The translations under genes were made by a program, and so were the position numbers. The notes under the pieces were generated by a model. The model saw only the letters and a program-made list of their open reading frames with translations. It ran no database searches and was not told the origin of the DNA. This document shows, piece after piece, positions 1,888 to 41,205 of a DNA stretch of 41,205 nt; the first letter of the stretch is position 1; every line of letters starts with the position of its first letter. This stretch comes from an uncultured bacterium (GTDB lineage Bacteria > Hydrothermota > UBA3072): assembly GCA_964604245.1 (NCBI GenBank), contig CAZRYJ010000001.1:23686-64890 (forward strand), given 5' to 3'.

Positions 1888-3048
1888 TTACCACCTGACC
1901 TTCTTAACCTGTTCTATGTTCTTTTGTGAATTATTTATGCCCCTTTGAGCATATTGTATCCACTTAGAATCACTTGTCTTCGTTATCGTTTTTTTCCAGA
2001 TTCTTATGGATTCCTCAAATTTTTCTATTGATGGATTCCACTTTTTATCCTGCATATAATTTAATCCCAAACGATAATAGTACTCTCCGTAAAGAGCTAA
2101 AAGAATTGCGTCGCCCGGATCAATAGAAAAACCTTCATTAATATATTTTTTAACACCTGGAAGATTCTTCCGGGTAAGCTCAAGATTAATCAATTGATAA
2201 TATACACTTAGATTGCCAGGTTCGATTTTTAATGCTTCTTTATAGTAACTCTCAGCTTTCTGATATTGCTTTAATTTTAAATACGCGTTTCCAATTTGTA
2301 TTCTGCTGGAAACATGCCTGGGAATTATTTTAATTATGGATTTGTATTCTTCGATAGCATTTCCGTATTCCCCAAGTTCGCTGTAACATTCGGCAAGCTT
2401 TTTAATTATTTCGATATCGTCAACAAAAGCCTCTTTAGCTTTTTTAAAAAACTTAACCGCTTCGCGATAACGCTTACGTTCAAAATAAGCATTTCCCAAC
2501 CTGAAAGCCACTCCGCTATCATCAGGGTTATATTGATAAGCTTTTTTATAGTTGTTTAAAGCTTCATCGTACCTACCCTGTGATTCAAGATAACTCGCAT
2601 ATAAGTCATAACTGTTGGCATCTTCAGGAAATTCTTTTATGACTTTTTTAAAAAGTAGCTCTGCTTTTTCAGGTTCTCCTATCATCGCATACAGGGAAGC
2701 AATAGCCTTTGCCATTTTACGATTACTCTCCGCATCAGGAAAACATCCAAACTTTTCCTTGCAAATTGCAAGGGCTTTATTTGTATCTCCAACTTCAAGA
2801 TACACCTGTCTCAATGCGAGATAAGCATCTACATAGTTGGGATCCGCTTTAATGGCCTTCTCCAAAAGAGGAATTGCTTCATTATAATTTTTCTGTTTCA
2901 TATGTTCGAAAGCAAAACTGTAGAATTTTTCCGCCTCGGAAACTTCCTGTGTTTGAGTACCTTCGTTTCCATCTTTTTTATCTCGAGCAGACGCACAGTT
3001 TGCTAAAACTAATAGAGAAAAAAGAAAAAAGACCCTTAAAAATTTCAC
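1888..3048 (-). CDS. TPR-repeat lipoprotein
   Basis: 386 aa. Signal peptide with lipobox (LLVLANC). Many 34-aa TPR-like repeats (A..Y...G.Y..A...Y..AL...P pattern). Its start codon abuts the stop of the upstream gene (3048/3049). Confidence 0.75.
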   Translation of the reverse strand: MKFLRVFFLFSLLVLANCASARDKKDGNEGTQTQEVSEAEKFYSFAFEHMKQKNYNEAIPLLEKAIKADPNYVDAYLALRQVYLEVGDTNKALAICKEKFGCFPDAESNRKMAKAIASLYAMIGEPEKAELLFKKVIKEFPEDANSYDLYASYLESQGRYDEALNNYKKAYQYNPDDSGVAFRLGNAYFERKRYREAVKFFKKAKEAFVDDIEIIKKLAECYSELGEYGNAIEEYKSIIKIIPRHVSSRIQIGNAYLKLKQYQKAESYYKEALKIEPGNLSVYYQLINLELTRKNLPGVKKYINEGFSIDPGDAILLALYGEYYYRLGLNYMQDKKWNPSIEKFEESIRIWKKTITKTSDSKWIQYAQRGINNSQKNIEQVKKVRW

Positions 3049-4425
3049 TTATTGATCCCCCTTTCCTTTTGATTTCGGTCTTGCCGCAAGAATCGTTTTT
3101 TCAACATCCTTTGCTTTAACCCAGACAAAATAAGTCATACCCGTATCATCAGTTTCATAATATGGACCTTCAGAAAAAGACTCTTCGACAAGTTCCTTAT
3201 AATTGTTAATAAAATTAACCTCCATAACTAACTGGGTCCTATTTTCATCCTGAGCTTCAGAGGTTAATCTATAACCATTAGCTGAAATCTCTAAATAAGG
3301 ATCGCTCAATAGATCATTTTTTATTTCTTTCATTGCTTCTTCTTCTTTAAACAATTCATAAAGATTACCCTGTGGAATAATATCTTTCTCATCCTCGTAA
3401 AGTTTAACCATAGAAACAAGATTCAAAAGAGAAGAATAACCGTTGAGAACTCTATTATTATTTAAAACATCAAATCTCTCCGAATAAAAAGAATTGAAAA
3501 GATTTACCGCTAAAGGGATTTTCTTCTTAAAAGTAACAATATCGCCAAGAAAATCGATTTTTCTGCCTCCATTCACATAGGAAACCATTTTATCGTCAAA
3601 TTCTTTTAGATCATTTATTAAAATTACATCCTTTTTCGAATCAAGTACATTGATAATCTTTTTAACTTGTTCATGAATACTTTCTGAATACAAAGGAATC
3701 GTATCCGTTTCATCTACCGATTCGGGTATATCCTTGCTTTGAACTGCCAAAAGCGGATTTTCCAATTTCTTCTCGATATGCCCAAACAGAAACCGAACAA
3801 CATCTTCTTCTATCAGATCACTTCTTCTCAAACTATCCCTTATCAAAAGACTATTTTGGATTCCTGAAATCATATAAGCAAGTTCTTCATTTTCCTGTAC
3901 CATCAAACTTATAACCCTGTCTTTTTCCTTTTCTATATTAATTCCGGAAATATAACGCAAAAGGCTATTTAATTCTGGTTCAATATTTCTATAATCATAT
4001 TCTCTCGCTTCTTTAATTTCATAAGCGGCAAAAGTTAATGCGGAATCAATCGGATAAAGATATTCAGATATCTTGATTTGCAGGGAACTATCCGCAGTAA
4101 ATAAATCTTTCTTTAATTCCTTAACTATACCCTCACATTGAGTAATTTTGGTTTTTGCTCTCATTACAGACATTTTCCTTCTTGTTATCCACTCGGGATC
4201 AGGATTTATTTCTTTCCTGAAATAAGGTTCTAAAACCCTTTCCCATTCGACTTCCAAAGGATATTGTCCGTTCTTTATCATATATTTTTCCAGCGCATTT
4301 CTTATTTCTTTGAGTCCCTTCTCAGCCTTCAATCGATGCGCCCTGCCGGCAAAGATAGCTTCTCCACCACAGGAGATAAAAACCAAAACACAGGATAATA
4401 CTATTAAAACCAGCGATTTCCTCAT
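3049..4425 (-). CDS. hypothetical secreted protein or lipoprotein
   Basis: I start it at ATG 4425 (MRKSLVLIVLSCVLVFISCGG, signal peptide with a Cys). The ORF-track start at 4518 reads through the tRNA gene and is an artefact. No family recognised. Confidence 0.6.
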   Translation of the reverse strand: MRKSLVLIVLSCVLVFISCGGEAIFAGRAHRLKAEKGLKEIRNALEKYMIKNGQYPLEVEWERVLEPYFRKEINPDPEWITRRKMSVMRAKTKITQCEGIVKELKKDLFTADSSLQIKISEYLYPIDSALTFAAYEIKEAREYDYRNIEPELNSLLRYISGINIEKEKDRVISLMVQENEELAYMISGIQNSLLIRDSLRRSDLIEEDVVRFLFGHIEKKLENPLLAVQSKDIPESVDETDTIPLYSESIHEQVKKIINVLDSKKDVILINDLKEFDDKMVSYVNGGRKIDFLGDIVTFKKKIPLAVNLFNSFYSERFDVLNNNRVLNGYSSLLNLVSMVKLYEDEKDIIPQGNLYELFKEEEAMKEIKNDLLSDPYLEISANGYRLTSEAQDENRTQLVMEVNFINNYKELVEESFSEGPYYETDDTGMTYFVWVKAKDVEKTILAARPKSKGKGDQ

Positions 4426-4451
4426 AAAAAATAACCCTCCATTCAAACCTT

Positions 4452-4524
4452 TGGAGCCGACGGGACTTGAACCCGTGCCCTTCTGACTGCCAGTCAGACG
4501 CGCTACCAACTGCGCCACGGCCCC
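4452..4524 (-). tRNA. tRNA-Ala (anticodon GGC)
   Basis: Minus-strand sequence GGGGCCGTGGCGCAGTTGGTAGCGCGTCTGACTGGCAGTCAGAAGGGCACGGGTTCAAGTCCCGTCGGCTCCA folds into a 73-nt cloverleaf: 7-bp acceptor, GCGC D-stem, TCTGA/TCAGA anticodon stem, loop CTGGCAG, TTCAAGT T-loop. It has the G3:U70 alanine identity pair. CCA is not encoded. Confidence 0.93.
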
Positions 4525-4675: not shown

Positions 4676-4759
4676 ACTTTCTCTATTGTATTTTAATTAA
4701 ACAACCTCAAAATCCGAAAAACCGATTTAACCACAGAGAGCACCATGCCCTGCCTGTTC

Positions 4760-4955
4760 CGAGAAGATTAACTATCTTTCCCATATGAAGTGTACTTGTA
4801 ACAATAAGAATATCCCTGATATCAGCAAAAATCAATTGTTTAATAGGATTGTAAATCACAGACTCTTTGCCAACCGGTAAAAAATGTTTATTTGTAACTT
4901 TTGTTAAAGGATACAGCCTGTCCCCTTTTCCTCCTGCGAGTATTACACCTTTTAT
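4760..4955 (-). pseudogene. N-terminal remnant of a sugar-phosphate nucleotidyltransferase (RmlA/GalU-like)
   Basis: Minus-strand translation reads (I)KGVILAGGKGDRLYPLTKVTNKHFLPVGKESVIYNPIKQLIFADIRDILIVTSTLHMGKIVNLLGTG. GxLAGGxGxRLxPLT is the nucleotidyltransferase signature. ATA occupies the position of the expected ATG. Homology stops after about 65 codons where repeat-module sequence begins. Confidence 0.6.
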
Positions 4956-7301: not shown

Positions 7302-7367
7302 CACAAGATTACCCCACCACTCCCCAAATTAATATCACCGCAGAGACGCAGAGCCCCACCACACCCC
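7279..7367 (+). repeat. two three-word modules overlapping the 3' end of the GT-C gene
   Basis: 7279-7325 aaccacaagattccacagattaacacaagattaccccaccactcccc; 7329-7367 ttaatatcaccgcagagacgcagagccccaccacacccc. Confidence 0.8.
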
Positions 7368-7574
7368 AGATAGTAACCACAAGATTTCACCCTGGTACAG
7401 TCGTGTTAATCTGCAGCTATTATTCGGGGTAGAGGGGTTAAAGACAATAAAAAACTCTACGTTCTCTGTGGCTATTATTTAGGGTATAGGATATAGGGTT
7501 TAGGGTATAGAAAAAAACAAAAGAAAAAAACAAAAACTCTGTGGGGCGTGTGTTGACTGGGAATACTATAATCA

Positions 7575-8786: not shown

Positions 8787-8938
8787 TTAACCACGAAACA
8801 CACGAAAAACACGAAACCCAACCCCCCGGAATGGGACGCAGATGCACGCAGATTTTCAGGATTTGAATCCCCCTTCCACCCCAGATTAATTAGCCACAGA
8901 TTTGTACTGATAGACACGGATACCCTTCCCACCACCCC
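8787..8938 (+). repeat. three consecutive three-word modules
   Basis: 8787-8827 ttaaccacgaaacacacgaaaaacacgaaacccaacccccc; 8833-8882 gggacgcagatgcacgcagattttcaggatttgaatcccccttccacccc; 8886-8938 ttaattagccacagatttgtactgatagacacggatacccttcccaccacccc. The middle and last units recur at 20885-20950. Confidence 0.8.
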
Positions 8939-9009
8939 ATTTTTTATTATTGGTAAGTCAAAAAAAAATTGAAATCCGTGTAGATACGCCTGCCCTGCCT
9001 GTCCCGCTT

Positions 9010-9043
9010 GCCCCGTAAGGAAGAATAACCGTATCGGGGTGTC
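9010..9043 (-). repeat. 34-nt element, left copy of an inverted pair (partner at 10901-10934)
   Basis: The reverse complement of 9010-9043 is gacaccccgatacggttattcttccttacggggc. 10901-10934 reads gacaccccgatacggtcattcttccctacggggc (32/34 identical). Confidence 0.8.
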
Positions 9044-9113: not shown

Positions 9114-9160
9114 AACCCTAGCGCGGCAAAGCCGCTAAAATGTAAAAATTAAATATCAAA

Positions 9161-9532
9161 ATGGAAAATGATAAATCAAAGTTCAAAAATGAATTCAAAA
9201 AAAGGCTATACAACTTTGTCCTGAAGCTTATTGAATTTTTAGATGTCTTACCTAAAGATAATGTTTCTAAAAGACTTGGAGATCAATTGCTTCGCAGTGG
9301 TACAAGTATCTTAGGTAATTACGTTGAAGGTCAATCTGCAAGCAGTAAGAAAGATTTTACCAATTATTTCAATTATTCTCTTAAGTCTACTAATGAAAGT
9401 AAGCTATGGATTAATCTTCTTAAGGATAGCAAAAGAGCTACACAAGAACAAGTTAACTGGTTTTTAGAGGAATTGGATGAAATAAGCAAGATTTTCGCTT
9501 CAAGTATTCTTATCCTGAAGGGCAAAAGATGA
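9161..9532 (+). CDS. four-helix-bundle protein (23S rRNA intervening-sequence protein family; same family as DGR Avd)
   Basis: 123 aa. Family-typical pattern ...LPKDNVSKRLGDQLLRSGTSILGNYVEGQSASSKKDFTNYFNYSLKSTNESKLWINLL. Confidence 0.8.
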   Translation: MENDKSKFKNEFKKRLYNFVLKLIEFLDVLPKDNVSKRLGDQLLRSGTSILGNYVEGQSASSKKDFTNYFNYSLKSTNESKLWINLLKDSKRATQEQVNWFLEELDEISKIFASSILILKGKR

Positions 9533-9660
9533 TTTTACATTTTTATTTGTCATTTTGCTTTTTAAATTTTGATATTTTATTTATCAGAAAAAGGCGGTGG
9601 AATTAAATGGGATATTTTTTTGCAAAAAAACAAAAAGTTGACTGACAGTACCACAGGTTT

Positions 9661-10900: not shown

Positions 10901-10934
10901 GACACCCCGATACGGTCATTCTTCCCTACGGGGC
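10901..10934 (+). repeat. 34-nt element, right copy of the inverted pair bracketing the 4HB gene and dapL
   Basis: See 9010-9043. A weaker relative is at about 20958-20990 (ggtacgatcgttcctccctacagggcaggc). Confidence 0.8.
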
Positions 10935-10961
10935 AGGCAGAGAACACGAAGCCGCACCACA

Positions 10962-11072
10962 CCCCAAAAGATTTAGACAGGATTTACAAGATTAACAGGA
11001 TAAGGTGTTTATTTAAAGCCCATCCCAACCCCAAAAGATTTAGACAGGATTTACAAGATTAACAGGATAAGG
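10962..11072 (+). repeat. 44-bp direct repeat (two copies) forming the left flank of GxxExxY copy 1
   Basis: ccccaaaagatttagacaggatttacaagattaacaggataagg occurs at 10962-11005 and 11029-11072. A third copy is at 23038-23080. Confidence 0.85.
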
Positions 11073-11092
11073 ATATAAATAAGATAAAATAA

Positions 11093-11470
11093 ATGAAATA
11101 CGAAAAGCTTACTGAAAAAATAATCGGTTGCGCTTATCAAGTTTACAATAAAATGGGGTTTGGCTTTTTGGAATCGGTTTATGAAAAATGCTTGATGATT
11201 GAGTTGAAGAAAACGGGACTCAAAGCTGAATCACAACATCCTATTGTAGTTCATTATGAAGATACAGTTGTAGGAGAGTTTGCAGCTGATATCATTGTTG
11301 AAGATTCGATTATACTGGAAATAAAAGCTGTAAGACATATAGCCAAGGCACATGAAGTTCAATTAGTCAACTATCTAAATGCAACCCAAAAGGATATAGG
11401 GTTGATTATCAATTTTGGAGAAAAAGAAGTCGAAATAAAGAGAAAAATTCGAAAATTGCCAGAAAAATAA
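11093..11470 (+). CDS. GxxExxY protein (PD-(D/E)XK nuclease-fold family), copy 1, apparently intact
   Basis: 125 aa. GFGFLESVYEKCL contains the GxxExxY motif; ADIIVEDSIILEIKA contains D...E-x-K core residues. TAA immediately precedes the ATG (aaaataaATGaa). Confidence 0.8.
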   Translation: MKYEKLTEKIIGCAYQVYNKMGFGFLESVYEKCLMIELKKTGLKAESQHPIVVHYEDTVVGEFAADIIVEDSIILEIKAVRHIAKAHEVQLVNYLNATQKDIGLIINFGEKEVEIKRKIRKLPEK

Positions 11471-11517
11471 TTTCATTTGGTCACTCAAATAACAAATAAT
11501 TTTTTTTATCTTTATTT

Positions 11518-11735
11518 CCTGTTATCCTGTCTATCTTTTTTTTATAACATATATTATTTCTTTATCCTGTCCATCCTGTTATCCTTTTTATGTTTTTTTA
11601 CAACAAAACTATTTTTTTTATCCTGTTGATCCTGTCTAAGTTTCTTTTAAATAAATTGTATCTTTATCTAGTCTACCCTGTTATCCTGTCTATCTTTTTT
11701 TTATAACATATATTATTTCTTTATCCTGTCCATCC
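11518..11735 (+). repeat. 59-bp direct repeat (two copies, 159 bp apart) in the right flank of GxxExxY copy 1
   Basis: cctgttatcctgtctatcttttttttataacatatattatttctttatcctgtccatcc occurs at 11518-11576 and 11677-11735. Its atcctgt words are the inverse of the left-flank acaggat words. Confidence 0.85.
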
Positions 11736-20821: not shown

Positions 20822-21239
20822 AAATTAAATATCAAAATTCAAAAAGCAAAATGACAAATAAAAATACAAAAACTAAAAATGATAGGACGCAGATGAACAC
20901 AGATTTTCAGGATTTGCCCCACTCCACTCCAGATTAATTAGCCACTGATTTTCAGCCTGGTACGATCGTTCCTCCCTACAGGGCAGGCTGATAGGCACTG
21001 ATCCCCCCACCTAACCCATATTTTAAACTAAAAAAATATCTTATATCTGTATACATCTCTGTCAATCTATAGTTAATTTAGGTGTTGTGGGTTGAGGAAA
21101 ACAAAAAAAAATCCTGTTAATCTTTTTTTTATCCTGTCAAAATATTGGGGATCTGGGTTGGGATTTAAACAAAAAAAATCTTGTAAATCTACGTTCATCT
21201 GCGTCCAATTTTCGGTGGTAGTGGGTGCGGCTTTGCCGC
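20822..21239. repeat. gene-less composite of repeat modules, a 4HB-flank relic and a solo GxxExxY-type terminal repeat
   Basis: 20822-20872 resembles the reverse complement of the 3' flank of the 4HB gene (9538-9590). 20885-20950 matches 8833-8903. 21108-21166 (atcctgttaatc...atcctgtcaaaatattggggatctgggttgggattt) matches the GxxExxY right-end repeat. 21190-21207 is an inverted copy of 20885-20905. Hairpin gcggctttgccgc at 21227-21239. Confidence 0.7.
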
Positions 21240-21245
21240 ATGGTA

Positions 21246-21274
21246 TTGACAAATGCATCCTTAAATTTTATGAT
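21246..21274 (+). promoter_or_regulatory. putative promoter placed for a leaderless transcript of the membrane-protein gene
   Basis: TTGACA 21246-21251, a 17-nt spacer, TATGAT 21269-21274. The ATG at 21281 is 7 nt after the -10 box and there is no SD. Confidence 0.5.
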
Positions 21275-21280
21275 AGAATT

Positions 21281-22921
21281 ATGACTCTATTCCTCATAAA
21301 AATAAGACTCCTGAGGGCTTTTAAGTCTATTTCATCAACAAGAAAGTCGAATCTTATTGTCTATTCTCTTGTTTTTTCCATTTTTCTATCAGGCGTTTTC
21401 CTTTTCTTTTTTAGAATCTTCTTATTTTTAGCTCCGATAGAAGTTATAGGTACTATCATAGCCGATAAGCTTATCACTTATTCATTCTTCATTTTTACCC
21501 TTCTCCTTTTTATGAGCAACGGAATTACAGCCCTTTCCACGCTATACCATTCCAAAGAACTCGATTATCTTCATTCCACTCCACTGCAACCCTTTTGTAT
21601 ATTTTCGCTAAAATTAATTGAAACTGCTTTCTACTCATCCTGGGCAACCCTGATTGGCGGATTACCTATCATCTTATCTTATTTAATTGCTTTTTCATCG
21701 TTTCATATAAAAATAATATTAATAATCTTTCCTTTACTCACTTTTATCTTTATTCCTTCCGGATTAGGTGTTTCAACTATAATTATCCTAAAAAGAATAA
21801 ACCCTCGCTGGACCATAAAGCAATTAGCCGCCGGACTGGGTACTCTTTCTGCTCTTTATGTTTTTATCTACATACAAACTACACCTTACAATTTTAACGT
21901 ACCTGACACCCTAAATCTCGAAGCGATAAATCAGTTCGTTCAAAGCTTAAAAGTTTCAAACCCTTATTTCCCGAACGAATGGTTTTACAAGTGCGTTTCC
22001 GCTCTTGCGAATAATAATTTCGAGATATTTATAAAAAACCTGACCCTCCTCCTTTCGGGAAGTTTAATTTCAATATCTCTTGCCTTTCTACTTTCAAATT
22101 TATTCTACCGGACAAGCTGGATGTCGGCTGAAAGTAATTCCGGGTCGTTTTTAATACATAAGAAACTTCTATCTAATAAGTTACCTACAATATTAAATAT
22201 TCTACAGAAAGATATAAAAATATTTCTACGTTCCCCTCTTCAATGGTCCCAACTTATGATAATAGGAGTACTACTAATAGTTTATACTTTTTCCCTAAGA
22301 AGAACACCTTTGTACGTTAGAGATCCCTTCTGGCTATCCGTTCTTGCTCTTGTAAATACAGGTTTTATTGGCTATATAACGGCTACTCTTTCTCTTCGCT
22401 TTGTTTACCCGGGTATAAGCCTGGAAGGCAGAACCTGGTGGAGCCTCAGGAGTGTACCTCTATCTCCCGAACTCATACTTCATTCCAAAAGTATATTATT
22501 TTTCTTAATCAATTTCCTTATTGCGGAAGCTGTAATAATACTCTCGAATTTTATTCTTGTTAGATACGCGATAATAGTGTTATTATCAGCTGTTTTATCC
22601 GCAATTTTTTCTTTTGTTTCAGTTTACTTAAACGTCTCTATGGGAACTTTATTTGCCGATTTCAAAGAAACAAACCCGGCAAAAATTGCCTCCGGAACGG
22701 GAGGTCTTTTAACAGCAGCTATAAATCTACTCTATATAGCTATATCAATGGTTCTTTTTGCGACACCAATATCTATCTATATAAAAAATCGCCTGGAAGG
22801 AAATTTGATTTCAATTCATACACCACTAATCATATCATCTTTTATATTTTTAATTATTACTTTATTAATAGTATTTATACCGCTTAAATACGCCAAAAAA
22901 AGAATAAAAGAAATTGAGTAA
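21281..22921 (+). CDS. polytopic integral membrane protein (possibly ABC-2/putative-exporter permease-like); function unknown
   Basis: 546 aa from ATG 21281, with more than 10 hydrophobic helices. The ORF-track start at 21092 runs through repeat modules and the promoter and is rejected. Confidence 0.55.
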   Translation: MTLFLIKIRLLRAFKSISSTRKSNLIVYSLVFSIFLSGVFLFFFRIFLFLAPIEVIGTIIADKLITYSFFIFTLLLFMSNGITALSTLYHSKELDYLHSTPLQPFCIFSLKLIETAFYSSWATLIGGLPIILSYLIAFSSFHIKIILIIFPLLTFIFIPSGLGVSTIIILKRINPRWTIKQLAAGLGTLSALYVFIYIQTTPYNFNVPDTLNLEAINQFVQSLKVSNPYFPNEWFYKCVSALANNNFEIFIKNLTLLLSGSLISISLAFLLSNLFYRTSWMSAESNSGSFLIHKKLLSNKLPTILNILQKDIKIFLRSPLQWSQLMIIGVLLIVYTFSLRRTPLYVRDPFWLSVLALVNTGFIGYITATLSLRFVYPGISLEGRTWWSLRSVPLSPELILHSKSILFFLINFLIAEAVIILSNFILVRYAIIVLLSAVLSAIFSFVSVYLNVSMGTLFADFKETNPAKIASGTGGLLTAAINLLYIAISMVLFATPISIYIKNRLEGNLISIHTPLIISSFIFLIITLLIVFIPLKYAKKRIKEIE

Positions 22922-22928
22922 GAATTCG

Positions 22929-23005
22929 ATTAGCCACTAAGCCACGAAGGCACAAAGAAAAAAAACTAATATATTTTAACCACGAAACACACTAAAGACA
23001 CGAAA
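22929..23005 (+). repeat. two three-word modules directly after the membrane-protein stop codon
   Basis: 22929-22957 attagccactaagccacgaaggcacaaag (AAG-type words, like 40288-40320). 22976-23005 ttaaccacgaaacacactaaagacacgaaa. Confidence 0.75.
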
Positions 23006-23024
23006 TTTTTTTGCTTTACTAAAT

Positions 23025-23080
23025 CCCAACCCCAAAACCCCAAATATTTAGACAGGATTTACAAGATTAACAGGATAAGG
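23025..23080 (+). repeat. left terminal inverted repeat of GxxExxY copy 2
   Basis: cccaaccccaaaaccccaaatatttagacaggatttacaagattaacaggataagg. Its reverse complement aligns with 23461-23507. Confidence 0.75.
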
Positions 23081-23100: not shown

Positions 23101-23361
23101 ATGAAATACGAAAAACTTACTGAAAAAATAATTGGTTGCGCTTATCAAGTTTATAATAAAATGGGGTTTGGATTTCTGGAATCGGTCTATGAAAAATGTC
23201 TAATGCTCGAATTGAACAAAACAGGGCTCAAAGCTAAAGCACATGAAGTTAAATTAGTCAACTATTTGAATGCAACTCAAAAGGATATAGGGTTGATTAT
23301 CGATTTTGGAGAAAAAGAAGTTGAAATAAAAAGAAAATTTCGAAAATTGCCAGAAAGTTAA
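23101..23361 (+). pseudogene. GxxExxY protein copy 2 with an in-frame 39-codon internal deletion (catalytic core missing)
   Basis: 86 aa and about 90 percent identical to copy 1 on both sides of the gap. ...KTGLKA|KAHEVKLVNYL... lacks ESQHPIVVHYEDTVVGEFAADIIVEDSIILEIKAVRHIA. The reading frame is retained. Confidence 0.7.
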
Positions 23362-23460
23362 TTTGTTGGGTTTTTTAAATAACAAATAATATTTTTTTAT
23401 CCTGTCCATCCTGTTATCCTGTCCAAATATTTCGGGGTTGTGTTGGGTTTTAAAAAACAA

Positions 23461-23507
23461 AAAATCCTGTAAATCCTGTTGATCCTGTCAAATATTTGGG
23501 AATTGGG
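23461..23507 (-). repeat. right terminal inverted repeat of GxxExxY copy 2 (a second partial copy at about 23396-23450)
   Basis: aaaatcctgtaaatcctgttgatcctgtcaaatatttgggaattggg is the inverse of the left end (atcctgtc-aaatatttggg / cccaaatattt-gacaggat). Confidence 0.75.
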
Positions 23508-25936: not shown

Positions 25937-26044
25937 TTAACCACAGATTACACAGATTAACACAAGATTACCACACACAACTACCCCATTTAATTTTTTT
26001 TTAACCACTAAACACACGAAAAACACTAAACCCCACAACACACC
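25937..26044 (+). repeat. two archetypal three-word modules
   Basis: 25937-25987 ttaaccacagattacacagattaacacaagattaccacacacaactacccc. 26001-26044 ttaaccactaaacacacgaaaaacactaaaccccacaacacacc, which closely matches the reverse complement of 91-134. Confidence 0.85.
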
Positions 26045-26202
26045 ATTTTTATCATGTTTTTAAAACTAGCCCCCCATACCCAAAAATTAGAAACAACGAA
26101 TTGCACGAATAGCACAAATAAAGTTTTTTGTTTCTTTTTCTGAATCCTAAATCCTAATTTTTTCATTTTGCTTTTTAATATTTAATTTTTAAACTTCTTA
26201 TG

Positions 26203-27072: not shown

Positions 27073-27173
27073 TTATCAACAAAAAAAACTTCTCACACGG
27101 AGACACAGAGAACACAGAGTTTTTCATTTTGTTTTTTACTAAATCCTAAATCCAATTTTTTTCATTTCCTATG

Positions 27174-28568: not shown

Positions 28569-28682
28569 TTATTTTTATTTTATTTATTTAAGACCCTACT
28601 CACAACCCCTAAATTAGCCACAGATTAACATGGATACAAAAAAATTCTAAAAAATTCTAAAAATTAAAAACAATAAAAAAAC

Positions 28683-28728
28683 GGGGTAGTAGGGTAATCT
28701 GGTGTTAATCTGTGTAATCTGTGGTTAA
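28683..28728 (-). repeat. three-word module, inverted near-identical partner of 25937-25987
   Basis: ggggtagtagggtaatctggtgttaatctgtgtaatctgtggttaa. The reverse complement ttaaccacagattacacagattaacaccagattacc matches 25937-25972 at 35/36 positions. Confidence 0.85.
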
Positions 28729-28733
28729 TTAAA

Positions 28734-38759: not shown

Positions 38760-38826
38760 AGACATCTTTCCCAAAAAACTTATTGACTTTCCCGGCAATC
38801 GCATTACTCTTAATATTGAAATCGAG

Positions 38827-39696
38827 ATGATAAAAATAACCAAAAAAAACATTGAAAAAAAACTGCTGGAAGCAATTAAAAAGGCTGAAACGGAACTTCC
38901 GATAGATGTAATAAAAGCCTTGAAAAAAGCAAAGAATATAGAAAAGGGACTTGCCAAAATCCAATTGGAGGCAATCCTCGAAAACGTTAGAATTGCTTCA
39001 AAAGAAAGTATCCCAATGTGTCAGGATACAGGTATAATGACATTCCACATAGAAGCAGGCACTGAATTTAAATACCTTGCCGACTTAAAGAAAATACTTA
39101 GTAACGCGGTAAAAAAAGCGACTGAAGAAATACCTCTCAGACCCAATACCGTTGATCCCTTTACCGGTAAAAATCCCGGGAACAATCTGGGCAGAAATAT
39201 CCCTCATATTACATGGGACATCACTAACGGAAAAGAATGCACGATACACATCATACCAAAGGGAGGCGGATCGGAAAATATGAGTGCTCTAAAAATGTTA
39301 AATCCCGGTAAAGGACTGCTTGAATCGAAAAAATTTATCATAGAGCATATAATAAAAGCAGGCGGTAAACCCTGTCCCCCAACCATCGTAGGTATAGGTA
39401 TCGGAGGCGGCTCCGATATCTGTCTGGCACTCGCAAAGAAAGCTCTTTTACGTAAAATCGGAGAGCGACACAGCGAAAAACATGTAGCAAAAATGGAAGA
39501 AGAGCTGCTCGAATTAATAAATAAATCAGGTGTAGGTCCGATGGGAATCGGGGGTAAAACAACGGTTTTGGACGTACATATAGAATACGCACACCGCCAT
39601 CCCGCGTCGTTTCCTTTAGGTTTAGTTTTACAGTGCTGGGCAGATAGAAGAAAAACAATAAAGTTTACAAAAAACGGTTCCATAAAAGTCATATAA
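38827..39696 (+). CDS. class I (Fe-S) fumarate hydratase / tartrate dehydratase, alpha subunit
   Basis: 289 aa. MCQDTGI cluster-ligand motif and IPKGGGSEN. Followed immediately (TAAATG) by the beta subunit gene. Confidence 0.8.
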   Translation: MIKITKKNIEKKLLEAIKKAETELPIDVIKALKKAKNIEKGLAKIQLEAILENVRIASKESIPMCQDTGIMTFHIEAGTEFKYLADLKKILSNAVKKATEEIPLRPNTVDPFTGKNPGNNLGRNIPHITWDITNGKECTIHIIPKGGGSENMSALKMLNPGKGLLESKKFIIEHIIKAGGKPCPPTIVGIGIGGGSDICLALAKKALLRKIGERHSEKHVAKMEEELLELINKSGVGPMGIGGKTTVLDVHIEYAHRHPASFPLGLVLQCWADRRKTIKFTKNGSIKVI

Positions 39697-40323
39697 ATGA
39701 AAAAAATCCAGTTGCAAACACCCTTATCAGCAAAAGACGTAAAAAATTTATCTGTGGGAGATACTGTTTTTTTAAGCGGTAAACTTTTCACCGCAAGGGA
39801 CGAGACACACAAGAAAATGCTTGAACTAAAAAGAAAGGGCAAAAAAACACCCTTCAACCCCAACGAAATGGCTTTATTCCACTGTGGTCCCGTTGTTAGG
39901 AAAGAAAAAAACGAATGGGTAATAATATCCGCAGGACCTACAACTTCAATTAGAATGGAAAACTTTGAAAGTGAATTCTTATCAACGTTCGGAGTACGGA
40001 TGATAATCGGTAAAGGCGGAATGGGAGAACAGACCTTAAAAGCCCTAAAAAAAACAGGGGCTGTATATACACATCTAACCGGTGGAACGGGTGCACTCGG
40101 GGCAAAAGCTGTAAAGAAAGTAGAAAACGTTTACTTTCTTGAAGAACTCGGAATACCGGAAGCTGCCTGGATACTTACCGTAGAGAATTTTGGCCCTCTC
40201 ATAGTAACAATGGATGCAAAGGGAAACAGTTTTTATGCCCACTTAGAAAAGGAAAGAAGAAAAAATCTTGAAAAAATCAATAAAGAAATTAGCCACAAAG
40301 ACACGAAGACACAAAGAAAATAA
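39697..40323 (+). CDS. class I fumarate hydratase / tartrate dehydratase, beta subunit
   Basis: 208 aa. LSGKLFTARDETHKKM and IGKGGMG motifs. The last 11 codons (ISHKDTKTQRK) and the stop are encoded by repeat module 40288-40320. Confidence 0.8.
   Translation: MKKIQLQTPLSAKDVKNLSVGDTVFLSGKLFTARDETHKKMLELKRKGKKTPFNPNEMALFHCGPVVRKEKNEWVIISAGPTTSIRMENFESEFLSTFGVRMIIGKGGMGEQTLKALKKTGAVYTHLTGGTGALGAKAVKKVENVYFLEELGIPEAAWILTVENFGPLIVTMDAKGNSFYAHLEKERRKNLEKINKEISHKDTKTQRK
40288..40320 (+). repeat. AAG-word module, left inverted flank of GxxExxY copy 3
   Basis: attagccacaaagacacgaagacacaaagaaaa. The inverse partner is at 40718-40742. Confidence 0.75.
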
Positions 40324-40716
40324 ATGAACTTTAAACCATTATCTAAGAAAGAAGAAGAAATAGCAAAAAAAATCGTAGATTCTGCATATACGGTTCATAA
40401 AGAATTAGGTGCAGGTTTACTTGAAAAAGTATACGAAACATGCTTTTGCCACGAATTATCTAAACGGGGAATTGAATTCAAAAGACAAATTCCGATTCCA
40501 ATAATCTATGACGGGGTCAAATTCGATGAAGGATTACGTTTGGATGTTCTCATAGAAGACAAAATTATATGTGAATTAAAAGCACTCGACCAAATGAATC
40601 CCGTATGGGAAGCTCAAATATTAAGTTATTTAAAATTAACTAACAAACGCTTGGGGTTTCTCATAAATTTTAATGTACCATTAATAAAAAAAGGTATAAA
40701 AAGATATGTTTTATAA
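40324..40716 (+). CDS. GxxExxY protein (PD-(D/E)XK fold), copy 3, divergent from copies 1 and 2
   Basis: 130 aa. GAGLLEKVYETCF contains the GxxExxY motif; RLDVLIEDKIICELKA contains D...E-x-K. The ATG directly follows the fumarase beta stop codon (aaaataaATGaa, the same junction as copies 1 and 2). Confidence 0.8.
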   Translation: MNFKPLSKKEEEIAKKIVDSAYTVHKELGAGLLEKVYETCFCHELSKRGIEFKRQIPIPIIYDGVKFDEGLRLDVLIEDKIICELKALDQMNPVWEAQILSYLKLTNKRLGFLINFNVPLIKKGIKRYVL

Positions 40717-40717
40717 T

Positions 40718-40742
40718 CTTAGTGCCTTGGTGCCTTCGTGGC
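40718..40742 (-). repeat. AAG-word module, right inverted flank of GxxExxY copy 3
   Basis: cttagtgccttggtgccttcgtggc. The reverse complement gccacgaaggcaccaaggcactaag has the same ccac-xAAG-xcac-xAAG-xcac-xAAG pattern as 40288-40320. Confidence 0.75.
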
Positions 40743-40763
40743 ATAAAAAATAAGGAATAATCA

Positions 40764-41205
40764 ATGGCTGATAATAAAAATCATGATATCGAAAAACTGA
40801 TAAAGAAAGCCGAACTGCCGCAAAAGATATCCCCAAAATGGCATGAACACTACCGGGGAAAAATCGAAAGTTCTTTGAAATGCTCCGTAACAAGCACGGA
40901 CGACTTCAGTATATGGTATACTCCGGGCGTTGCGGAACCGTGCAGAATGATAAATAAAGATCCCTCACTTGCTTACAAATTTACAAATAAGTGGAACAAT
41001 GTCGCAATAGTATCCGACGGCTCAAGAGTTCTTGGTCTTGGAGATATAGGAGCTCTTGCAAGTCTTCCTGTCATGGAAGGAAAAAGTCTTTTGTTTAAAT
41101 ATTTGGGAGGAGTAAGCGCTTTTCCGATTGTCCTTGATACAAAAGACCCGGAGAAATTCATCGAAACAGTAAAAATAATCGCTCCTGCTTTCGGAGGAAT
41201 AAATC
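40764..41205 (+). CDS. NAD(P)-dependent malic enzyme, N-terminal part (runs off the window)
   Basis: Not in the ORF track because no stop codon falls in the window. ATG 40764 gives MADNKNHDIEKLI...IWYTPGVAEPC...VAIVSDGSRVLGLGDIGALASLPVMEGKSLLFKYLGG, typical of MaeB-type malic enzymes. Confidence 0.8.
   Translation, partial: MADNKNHDIEKLIKKAELPQKISPKWHEHYRGKIESSLKCSVTSTDDFSIWYTPGVAEPCRMINKDPSLAYKFTNKWNNVAIVSDGSRVLGLGDIGALASLPVMEGKSLLFKYLGGVSAFPIVLDTKDPEKFIETVKIIAPAFGGIN

Follow-up and report, generated by a model that had tools for sequence, protein, structure and literature searches.

The cassette at the fumB-malic enzyme junction

The window analysed in this study is a 41,205-nt stretch of DNA (37% G+C) from an uncultured bacterium (contig CAZRYJ010000001.1), towards the end of which genes for fumarate hydratase alpha (PF05681) and beta (PF05683) and the start of a malic enzyme gene (PF00390) follow one another, all on the + strand (38827-41205). 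Between the fumarate hydratase beta gene (fumB, 39697..40323, +; PF05683 over residues 2-182 and NF004708 over residues 4-195 of 208) and the 5' part of the malic enzyme gene (40764..41205, +; PF00390 and NF009501), which is the direct neighbour of fumB in relatives, lies an open reading frame (ORF) of 130 aa (40324..40716, +) that belongs to the GxxExxY / PD-(D/E)XK family (TIGR04256, PF13366). It is the third GxxExxY gene of the window and is termed copy 3 below. The original prediction, made from the bare sequence, held that this ORF is a cassette which starts directly after the fumB stop and whose flanks are composed of xAAG words. Its coordinates and sequences proved exact, as the ATG directly abuts the fumB stop codon TAA (40321-40323), and three CAC-N-AAG-N words were found in each flanking module. 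The observation itself is thus confirmed.

The left module ATTAGCCACAAAGACACGAAGACACAAAG lies within the fumB reading frame and forms the left arm of the cassette (40288..40316, +), in which a head, TTAGCCAC, is followed by the words CAC-A-AAG-A, CAC-G-AAG-A and CAC-A-AAG. Next comes a 12-nt junction, AAAATAAATGAA (40317..40328, +), which carries both the fumB stop TAA and the cassette ATG; the last 10 codons of fumB and its stop (40291-40323, +) are encoded by the left module and this junction. The right module CTTAGTGCCTTGGTGCCTTCGTGGC (40718-40742; reverse complement GCCACGAAGGCACCAAGGCACTAAG) begins 1 nt past the stop of the ORF, and the right arm with its head (40718..40746, -) consists of three CTT-N-GTG words and then the head GTGGCATAA, an arrangement conserved in two related fumB loci (L004 and L005) and in the homolog set described below. 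Both modules were resolved by TRF as three copies of an 8-nt unit, and an inverted-repeat search of the window paired them as a 22-nt inverted repeat with 77% complementarity. The pattern CACNAAGNCACNAAGNCACNAAG (<=1 mismatch) has three matches in the window, at 22935 (+), 40294 (+) and 40718 (-), compared with a shuffle mean of 0.00 (n=100), and two of the three bracket the copy-3 ORF in inverted orientation. The third is a solo forward CAC-N-AAG module (22935..22957, +), the sole other module of this class in the window, placed directly past the stop of the gene at 21092-22921.

The GxxExxY protein

The ORF scored 146.6 bits against TIGR04256 (cut-off 35) and 142 bits against PF13366 PDDEXK_3 (E = 1.4e-41, cut-off 22). 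PDDEXK_3 and GxxExxY were its only Pfam and NCBIfam matches, with no match to a Pfam transposase. Its motifs read G31-L-L-E34-K-V-Y37, E38, D74, E84-x-K86 and Q98xxxY102, and D74, E84 and K86 were invariant or nearly so across 73 sequences. An AlphaFold2 model of high confidence (pLDDT 93.6, pTM 0.87) comprises two N-terminal helices and an alpha-beta nuclease core, and a Foldseek search with it returned nucleases, at weak scores (E >= 5e-3), and no transposases. The matches were Cas4 SSO0001, lambda exonuclease, tRNA splicing endonucleases, Hjc and I-Bth0305I, a homing endonuclease with a PD-(D/E)XK fold; a sequence search of the PDB found no relative. The protein thus resembles the RecB/Cas4/lambda-exonuclease branch in its fold and in the motif order E...D...ExK...QxxxY, Cas4 SSO0001 and lambda exonuclease being the best Foldseek matches. 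These matches remain weak, however (TM-score ~0.45), and in contrast to that branch the cassette protein is minimal and stands alone, with no Fe-S cluster module or partner domains. The function of PDDEXK_3 has been listed as "Unknown" (PMC3424549). The GxxExxY/PDDEXK_3 family is very large, with at least 8000 candidates in both searches, and is spread over many phyla and viruses; the literature searched on GxxExxY, PDDEXK_3 and intervening sequences (IVS) contained no description of flanking word arrays for this family.

Conserved architecture at homolog loci

A metagenome scan with the window protein yielded 80 loci on unrelated contigs, with 65-82% aa identity. These loci were ascertained by protein similarity, and the flanks were not used for ascertainment. 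Both flanks matched CCAC.AAG.CAC.AAG.CAC.AAG in 64 of the 80 loci (<=5 substitutions, most with 0-1), while the neighbouring genes were unrelated from locus to locus. One unit was common to L107, L116 and L120 (two copies), where it stood in different flanks. In the homolog loci the left module runs forward and typically ends 6-10 nt (about 7) before the ATG, from which it is separated by a GGA-rich spacer, and the inverted right module starts 1-2 nt past the stop. The junction AAAATAAATG of the window copy is restricted to one lineage, consisting of the window, L004 and L005; homologs elsewhere have the GGA-rich spacer. With their heads, the arms of the family reach ~40 nt and constitute terminal inverted repeats.

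A census of CAC-N-AAG modules in 893 kb of DNA counted 97 in forward and 86 in reverse orientation. Adjacent modules followed each other as forward then reverse in 71 of 99 pairs, with inner distances that cluster either at 401-403 nt, which corresponds to the ORF, or at 15-39 nt. The short pairs keep a ribosome-binding site (RBS), an ATG and a few GxxExxY codons and can therefore be recognised as derivatives of internal deletion; the retained codons demonstrate that elements of this family decay by this route to ORF-less, hairpin-like pairs. Homologs with at least 78% aa identity that could be named came from WOR-3, Ignavibacteriales, Cloacimonetes and Desulfobacterales, and an ORF-less inverted CAC-N-AAG pair was found in a predicted viral contig of IMG/VR (IMGVR_UViG_3300024353_000100; L202, 290-395), in an intergenic position just upstream of a gene. 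Scans of viral contigs for relatives of copy 1 and of the four-helix-bundle (4HB) gene described below found none.

The word class of the flanks follows the subfamily of the enclosed gene. The original prediction had stated that left and right flanks agree in word class within a cassette and differ between types, and this held over 82 loci of the copy-3 type and 8 of the copy-1 type. Within 150 nt on either side, genes of the copy-3 type (n=82) had on average 5.27 CAC.AAG and 0.04 ACAGGAT words, whereas those of the copy-1 type (n=8; the two further window copies and L095, L171, L174, L175, L176 and L178, which are six unrelated contexts with 70-84% aa identity) had 0-1 CAC.AAG and 1-8 ACAGGAT words. 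Other subfamilies, met by chance, were flanked by CACAGAT words (L081, L083, L090) or by CACGAAT words (L104). Across the loci compared, different GxxExxY subfamilies thus carry different word classes.

Several further arrangements of modules were observed at these loci. L193 and L196 differ by a 167-nt presence/absence polymorphism downstream of the GxxExxY gene (L193 1593-1812), the insert being a second, tandem cassette with an internal deletion that leaves a left module, an ATG with a few codons, the final 11 codons and a right module. Head-to-head pairs of a reverse and a forward module, with 8-36 nt between them, are frequent (L174 at ~200-400 and 800-900; L108 4406-4468; L155 3748-3829), and in L174 one such pair recurs on either side of the gene, an arrangement as if elements insert side by side.

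Insertion with duplication of 8 bp of target

In one sub-lineage of the family the inverted repeat continues past the head for another 12 nt (GTAACTNNTCAG-CCAC ... GTGG-CTGANNAGTTAC). Exact 8-bp direct repeats abut the ends of the element in L091 (AAATCAGC), L107 (CCATGGGC), L145 (CAATTTCT) and L121, and L097 has a repeat matching at 6/8 positions. Such exact repeats, in 4 of 40 loci, compare with a permutation mean of 0.41 and a maximum of 3 (300 permutations), in what is a small sample of target duplications.

The clearest case is L107, in which a 477-nt element lies between two copies of CCATGGGC (3119 and 3604). When the element and one copy of CCATGGGC were removed in silico, the sequence became ..PFHWWPSMGGGKDGAKQNFVQEKYARHD.. 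and an ORF was restored, which aligned without a gap to the uninterrupted proteins P0242 (..PVHWWPSVDGGKDGAKSKFVQDKYARHD..), P0243, P0246 and P0247. Since removal of the element restores a collinear ORF, the 8-bp repeat in L107 can be taken as a target-site duplication. In L145 the element stands in the last codons of an Mfd-like gene, where its terminus GTAAC supplies a new stop, and this rewriting of a C-terminus is of the same kind as that seen in fumB. At the level of sequence, these comparisons demonstrate that elements of the cassette family insert at new sites, including coding sequence, and duplicate 8 bp of the target.

The gene split by the L107 element (2800-3171 and 3606-4211) belongs to a family without a Pfam domain (P0242-P0247, ~320-350 aa). 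Its interrupted copy is also frameshifted upstream of the insertion, and the family could in turn belong to a mobile element.

The fumB-malic enzyme locus in related genomes

Fifteen fumB loci from related, WOR-3/Stahlbacteria-like genomes were compared with the window, the closest being L002 (~89% DNA identity). In L003, L008 and L010 there is no intergenic space, and fumB ends in ..NSFYEK* at or over the malic enzyme start. L014 has a gap of 17 nt and a native long fumB tail, ..DLRKEIEKNLEKIHAKIENS*, whereas a gap of 77-80 nt in L001, L006 and L011 holds two CACAGAG-class modules only. In L002 and L007 the same long fumB tail as in L014 is fused to the left module of the window (..EISHKDTTTQNKKT*), the ORF is absent and 261-268 nt of other modules take its place. 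An ortholog of the GxxExxY gene (87-88% aa identity) is present in L004 and L005, in the latter with an in-frame TAG, and both loci share with the window the proximal left module, the AAAATAAATG junction and the right module.

A rough neighbour-joining tree, built from the 3.3 kb upstream, places every occupied genome close to a relative that lacks the ORF (the window and L002, L004 and L003, L005 and L007), so that empty and occupied sites stand in sister positions at orthologous loci. This makes the cassette an accessory unit that separates fumB and the malic enzyme gene, which are otherwise contiguous, as the original prediction had proposed from the window without sight of the empty or differently filled junctions of the relatives. 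It had likewise stated that the C-terminus of FumB is rewritten, and the comparison bears this out: the last 10 residues, SHKDTKTQRK, and the stop are encoded by the module, and the residues before them, ..LEKINKEI, have their homologous counterpart in the long native tail of L014.

We also considered whether the exact boundary of the insertion could be taken from this comparison, and rejected it, since nearly all relatives differ in how the junction is rearranged. With this much rearrangement, no single clean event can be defined at the locus. As a separate observation, a patch of ~1 kb over fumA (38797-39796) shares 99-100% identity with L002, against 75-94% in the DNA around it; either the lineages have recombined recently, or one of the metagenome-assembled genomes is a chimeric co-assembly.

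Constraint on the arms

The synonymous sites of the ORF family are saturated (mean proportion of differences pS 0.82 at synonymous and pN 0.18 at non-synonymous sites), and dN/dS between the window copy and its L004 ortholog is 0.11. Despite this saturating divergence, the CAC and AAG triplets of the arms are almost invariant, with random bases at the N positions. A period of 8, which is not a multiple of 3, excludes coding constraint as an explanation of the words. Taken together, these values establish that the ORF and the word triplets are under purifying selection.

The arms could be conserved either as words or as the two strands of an RNA stem, and the original prediction had offered a long RNA stem as one of its two options. 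Over 47 distinct loci, the arm-to-arm matches at the five N positions were, as observed/permuted, 17/13.2, 15/16.9, 13/12.5, 12/16.4 and 6/12.8. At the conserved positions there were 970 Watson-Crick pairs, and the mismatches comprised 17 of G:U type (on the sense strand), 15 of A:C type and 18 others. Since the N positions do not covary and the mismatches have no G:U bias, the constraint appears to be sequence-specific and not that of an RNA stem, and fixed CAC and AAG triplets with free N positions therefore bear the signature of a sequence-reading protein. The base of the head (G or A before CCAC) agreed between the arms in 43 of 47 loci, where 29.2 were expected, and 13 arm positions had changed on both arms at once, where by our own estimate ~1 would do so by chance. 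These double changes include CTC/GAG for CAC/GTG in L135 and L136, and the flanks of L160 show the same variants. This substitution pattern is that of a site for a sequence-reading protein at both ends, and not of a helix kept for pairing.

ViennaRNA minimum free energy (MFE) and centroid folds of 40270-40765 nevertheless pair the arms (5+3+3+3+3+4 bp with five 1x1 mismatches, z = -3.95), and a stem in a read-through transcript is therefore physically plausible. Alone, the left arm folds at 0 kcal/mol and the right arm weakly, at -7.8 kcal/mol (z = -1.6). The long stem is thus predicted on thermodynamic grounds, but as a selected feature it was rejected on the covariation and wobble counts, with no complementarity above permutation. 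An RNA stem is possible as a by-product, one which the substitution pattern does not support.

Other GxxExxY copies and word modules in the window

Two further GxxExxY loci were detected in the window by tblastn. Copy 1 (11093..11470, +) encodes 125 aa of a second subfamily, 38% identical to copy 3. Upstream of it are two copies of the ACAGGAT-class left module TTAGACAGGATTTACAAGATTAACAGGATAAGG (10973..11072, +), and downstream is an array of inverted ATCCTGT-class modules (11499..11735, -), a higher-order tandem with a period of ~57 nt and 4 copies. Copy 2 (23101..23361, +) is an 86-aa remnant of a copy-1-type gene with an in-frame internal deletion of the catalytic core, placed between an ACAGGAT-class left module (23048..23080, +) and two inverted ATCCTGT-class modules (23397..23493, -). 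Both copies thus have TTAGACAGGATTTACAAGATTAACAGGATAAGG upstream and ATCCTGT words downstream, and the ACAGGAT/ATCCTGT flanks that had been claimed for them were recovered on both sides. Their flanks are near-identical to each other, and the two genes are paralogs duplicated along with their flanks, so that the window holds only two independent cassettes. Copy 2 has lost the D...ExK core and kept both flank modules, and appears to be an intermediate en route to ORF-less module pairs. A TAA-ATG junction had been described as common to all three copies; the 12-nt string AAAATAAATGAA is indeed present in all three (at 11086 and 23094 as well as at copy 3), but its TAA ends a real gene at copy 3 only; the open stretch that it terminates at copies 1 and 2 is 9 codons long.

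Word modules are not specific to cassettes. Modules of many classes occupy 12 of the 17 longer intergenic stretches listed for the window, in both orientations and often with no ORF nearby; their heads read TTA[AG]CCAC and their words CACGAAA, CACAGAT, CACGGAT, CACAGAG or CGCAGAT. No Rfam family matched any module of the window, where the only match was a tRNA. The number of ATCCTGT modules downstream of the gene is polymorphic between strains, one strain contig (L163, compared with L161) having 267 nt in place of 426 nt between gene and neighbour. An ORF-less inverted pair of CACAGAT-class modules with an AT-rich spacer (28618-28733), which folds as a hairpin of -22.7 kcal/mol (z = -4.3), looks like a derivative of another cassette class resembling a miniature inverted-repeat transposable element (MITE). 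C-rich boxes CCCCACCACACCCC (G-rich on the other strand) accompany many modules, usually on the side away from the head (e.g. 7312-7325, 7354-7367, 8818-8826, 8925-8940, 10960-10972, 23022-23045 and 25975-25990).

The window also contains a small gene of another family in a similar setting. The gene at 9161-9532 is not a GxxExxY gene and encodes a 4HB '23S rRNA IVS protein' (PF05635/TIGR02436), with its own AT-rich inverted repeat of 43 nt (74% complementary) in flanks 9137-9188 and 9533-9582. This repeat overlaps the start codon and resumes right past the stop, and the RNA fold pairs the flanks, so that the cassette logic is like that of the GxxExxY units, with different words. Sequence like its right flank, geneless, occurs at about 20822-20880, 26160-26190 and 27120-27140. 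In L081 a 4HB gene similarly stands between inverted CTAAAGT words. Around the 4HB gene and an LL-diaminopimelate aminotransferase gene, a 38-nt inverted repeat (9006-9043 / 10901-10938, 92% complementary, GCTTGCCCCGTAAGGAAGAATAACCGTATCGGGGTGTC) encloses 1857 nt, and sequence related by eye to GCTTGCCCCGTAAGGAAGAATAACCGTATCGGGGTGTC lies near 20955-20990, 7385-7400 and 4745-4770. Elsewhere in the window, a tRNA gene at 4452-4524 (-; Rfam, 72 bits) overlaps the 5' end of the listed ORF 3049-4518, and the true start of that gene is therefore further downstream.

A proposed selfish cassette family and its alternatives

On balance, we read 40288-40746, with moderate confidence, as an old and probably immobile copy of a very widespread, compact and selfish cassette family bounded by terminal inverted repeats. 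A full element of this family would measure ~450-480 bp and consist of a terminal repeat, a 7-nt RBS spacer, a 130-aa nuclease-fold gene and a second terminal repeat 1-2 nt past the stop, each repeat being made up of a head ..GCCAC (preceded in some lineages by GTAACTNNTCAG) and three 8-nt CAC-N-AAG-N words. Such an element probably came into the fumB-malic enzyme junction in an ancestral genome, where it took the place of the native fumB end, its ORF having since been under purifying selection. The nuclease of the element may recognise the word arrays at its own ends, cut at them and in this way drive or assist movement. If the host operon were transcribed through the element, the arms could pair, with the ORF looped out and a site offered to RNase III, by analogy with IVS, and such a site would make insertions inside operons tolerable.

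Elements of this kind share with insertion sequences and MITEs the terminal inverted repeats that abut a single ORF, a fixed 8-bp target duplication, insertion into coding sequence and ORF-less derivatives of internal deletion that keep both ends. In contrast to insertion sequences, however, the cassette has no DDE, HUH, serine or tyrosine transposase, only a 130-aa nuclease-fold domain, and its ends are arrays of three 8-nt words and not a single terminal repeat. To our knowledge, it is shorter than any autonomous insertion sequence.

Several findings weigh against the reading as a selfish cassette. The terminal-inverted-repeat mobile unit that the original prediction gave as its other option holds for the family, through the 8-bp duplications and the restored L107 ORF, but not convincingly for the window copy. 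There the inverted repeat past the head is short only, and no convincing target duplication was found; the candidate ATAAAGAA/ATAAGGAA was rejected, as its two halves match at 7/8 positions, are AT-rich, are equalled by ~8% of null loci and map to different positions of the L014 outgroup. Exact duplications are limited to the four loci named above. Recent spread to several loci was not seen among identical proteins, as P0001 (22 contigs), P0166 (24) and P0224 (12) each occupied one locus. At the fumB-malic enzyme junction, L002 keeps the left module while other modules replace the ORF and the right arm, a history which is not one of simple insertion or excision. We know of no means by which a 130-aa nuclease domain could join strands, nor of any transposon with only a PD-(D/E)XK enzyme. 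Finally, the unrelated 4HB family fills cassettes of the same architecture in the window, in L081 and in the Coxiella IVS, and the ORFs may therefore be cargo and not the mobilising enzyme.

This last point leads to the strongest alternative, namely that the cassette is non-autonomous, with ends of word arrays read by a transposase or recombinase encoded elsewhere, and with GxxExxY and 4HB proteins as passengers that aid the element or the host, e.g. in toxin/defence or addiction. We regard it as rather unlikely. A target duplication of 8 bp is typical of several DDE transposase families, and a nuclease domain alone would be incapable of strand transfer. ORF-less and ORF-dead copies persist, and two unrelated small families, GxxExxY and S23p, are found in the same architecture of tandem words and inverted repeats (see also PMC4990558). 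On the other hand, no transposase gene recurs beside the cassettes, the neighbour genes differing from locus to locus, and the ORF is under the strong purifying selection noted above. Each subfamily, moreover, keeps its own word class over saturating divergence, and CAC-N-AAG pairs enclose only this subfamily or nothing. Such pairing of subfamily and words is expected if the enclosed protein reads the words, though co-inheritance could also yield it.

Two further explanations appear improbable. In one, the selected function is a long-range stem in the transcript around the ORF, which is processed by RNase III as in IVS or controls translation, and the DNA unit is not mobile. ORF-bearing IVS are also the closest known counterpart of the cassettes in architecture, a likeness that counts equally for the selfish-cassette reading. 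The IVS of Coxiella burnetii is a 428-nt selfish element in 23S helix 45 with an S23p (4HB) ORF inside an inverted-repeat stem; three tandem GACAGAT heptamers, strain-variable in copy number, stand before the ATG, the first of them being where RNase III cleaves (PMC4990558). The origin of IVS is described there as unresolved, an older hypothesis that is cited being that of a mobile element with an ORF serving mobility (PMC4990558). The IVS (Coxiella burnetii; ORFs also in Leptospira, Xanthomonas and Brucella) and the cassettes are alike in size (428 nt and ~450-480 nt), in having one small ORF directly between inverted repeats, and in the tandem 7-8-nt words before the ATG (GACAGAT x3 in Coxiella, CAC-N-AAG-N x3 here). 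Both also have strain-variable word numbers, decay of the ORF by internal deletion and a patchy distribution, and IVS are viewed as selfish and possibly once mobile (PMC4990558). The cassettes differ, however, in standing between or inside protein-coding genes and not in 23S helix 9, 25 or 45, and in encoding PF13366 GxxExxY where the IVS ORF is S23p/4HB (PF05635). A target-site duplication is seen here, whereas IVS mobility is a hypothesis only (PMC4990558), and RNase III cleavage is reported for Coxiella but putative here. The link to 23S rRNA IVS drawn in the original prediction is documented for 4HB/S23p (PMC4990558) but could not be verified for GxxExxY, and no rRNA was found by Rfam in any of 40 homolog loci.

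In favour of such an RNA element are the predicted pairing of the arms, the RNase III cut at tandem repeats of the Coxiella stem (PMC4990558) and the direct abutment of the arms on the RBS and the stop codon. Between fumA and the malic enzyme gene, promoter-like and terminator-like sites were not in excess, and co-transcription is thus plausible. The arms, however, lack complementarity above chance at the five variable positions and G:U bias among their mismatches, and the paired triplets are conserved in sequence and not merely in complementarity. The target duplications and the restored ORF of L107, moreover, show the unit inserting as DNA, and the absence of rRNA from the 40 homolog loci also counts against this explanation.

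The other, to which we give equally little credence, holds that the modules are domesticated repeats of the REP/RAYT type (repetitive extragenic palindromes and their associated tyrosine transposases) with a cellular role in mRNA stability, termination or nucleoid structure, and that GxxExxY proteins are vertically inherited processing nucleases. Presence or absence at the fumB-malic enzyme junction would then come from repeat-mediated deletion or duplication and not from transposition. RAYTs and REPINs likewise involve a gene flanked by its own dispersed repeat, with protein subfamilies paired to repeat classes. The cassettes resemble them in these respects, a small gene standing between inverted short repeats that are also scattered intergenically. 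As described above, word modules of various classes take up most of the longer intergenic stretches, often where no ORF is near; module number varies between strains by tandem duplication; and at the fumB-malic enzyme locus the cassette is about as diverged as its neighbours (87% aa identity compared with 78-92%). In contrast, RAYTs are HUH Y1 enzymes and the cassette protein has a PD-(D/E)XK fold, and REPs are individually palindromic where the modules are not, the left arm alone having no fold. The spread of REPINs leaves no target duplication, whereas the cassettes insert into coding sequence with one of 8 bp. Nor is vertical inheritance readily reconciled with the occurrence of the same subfamily, at >=78% identity, in several phyla and of an ORF-less pair in a viral contig. 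An integron cassette of the attC type was dropped from consideration, as here sequence-conserved modules flank the gene on both sides and an integrase is absent.

Returning to the selfish cassette family, we tentatively extend the proposal to the GxxExxY proteins at large, a possibility that we hold with considerably less assurance than the reading of the window copy itself. GxxExxY proteins could be the mobilising enzymes of minimal autonomous elements of ~0.45-0.48 kb, a class not recognised before and smaller than any insertion sequence known, in which a RecB/Cas4-like PD-(D/E)XK nuclease of 125-130 aa would read subfamily-specific arrays of 8-nt words at both ends and make 8-bp duplications; ORF-bearing 23S IVS and the intergenic word modules of WOR-3-like and other genomes might then be products of the same system.

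Recognition of a GxxExxY subfamily as a discrete travelling unit provides a testable model for the function of the family and for the origin of ORF-bearing IVS, a question that has stood since the early 1990s (PMC4990558). The modules rewrite the ends of genes, as in fumB and the Mfd-like gene of L145, interrupt genes, as in L107, and inflate ORF calls in metagenomes. If the nuclease is cargo, the word arrays point to a separate mobilising activity. If instead it is the mobilising enzyme, the cassettes would represent a new transposition chemistry and the smallest autonomous element known.

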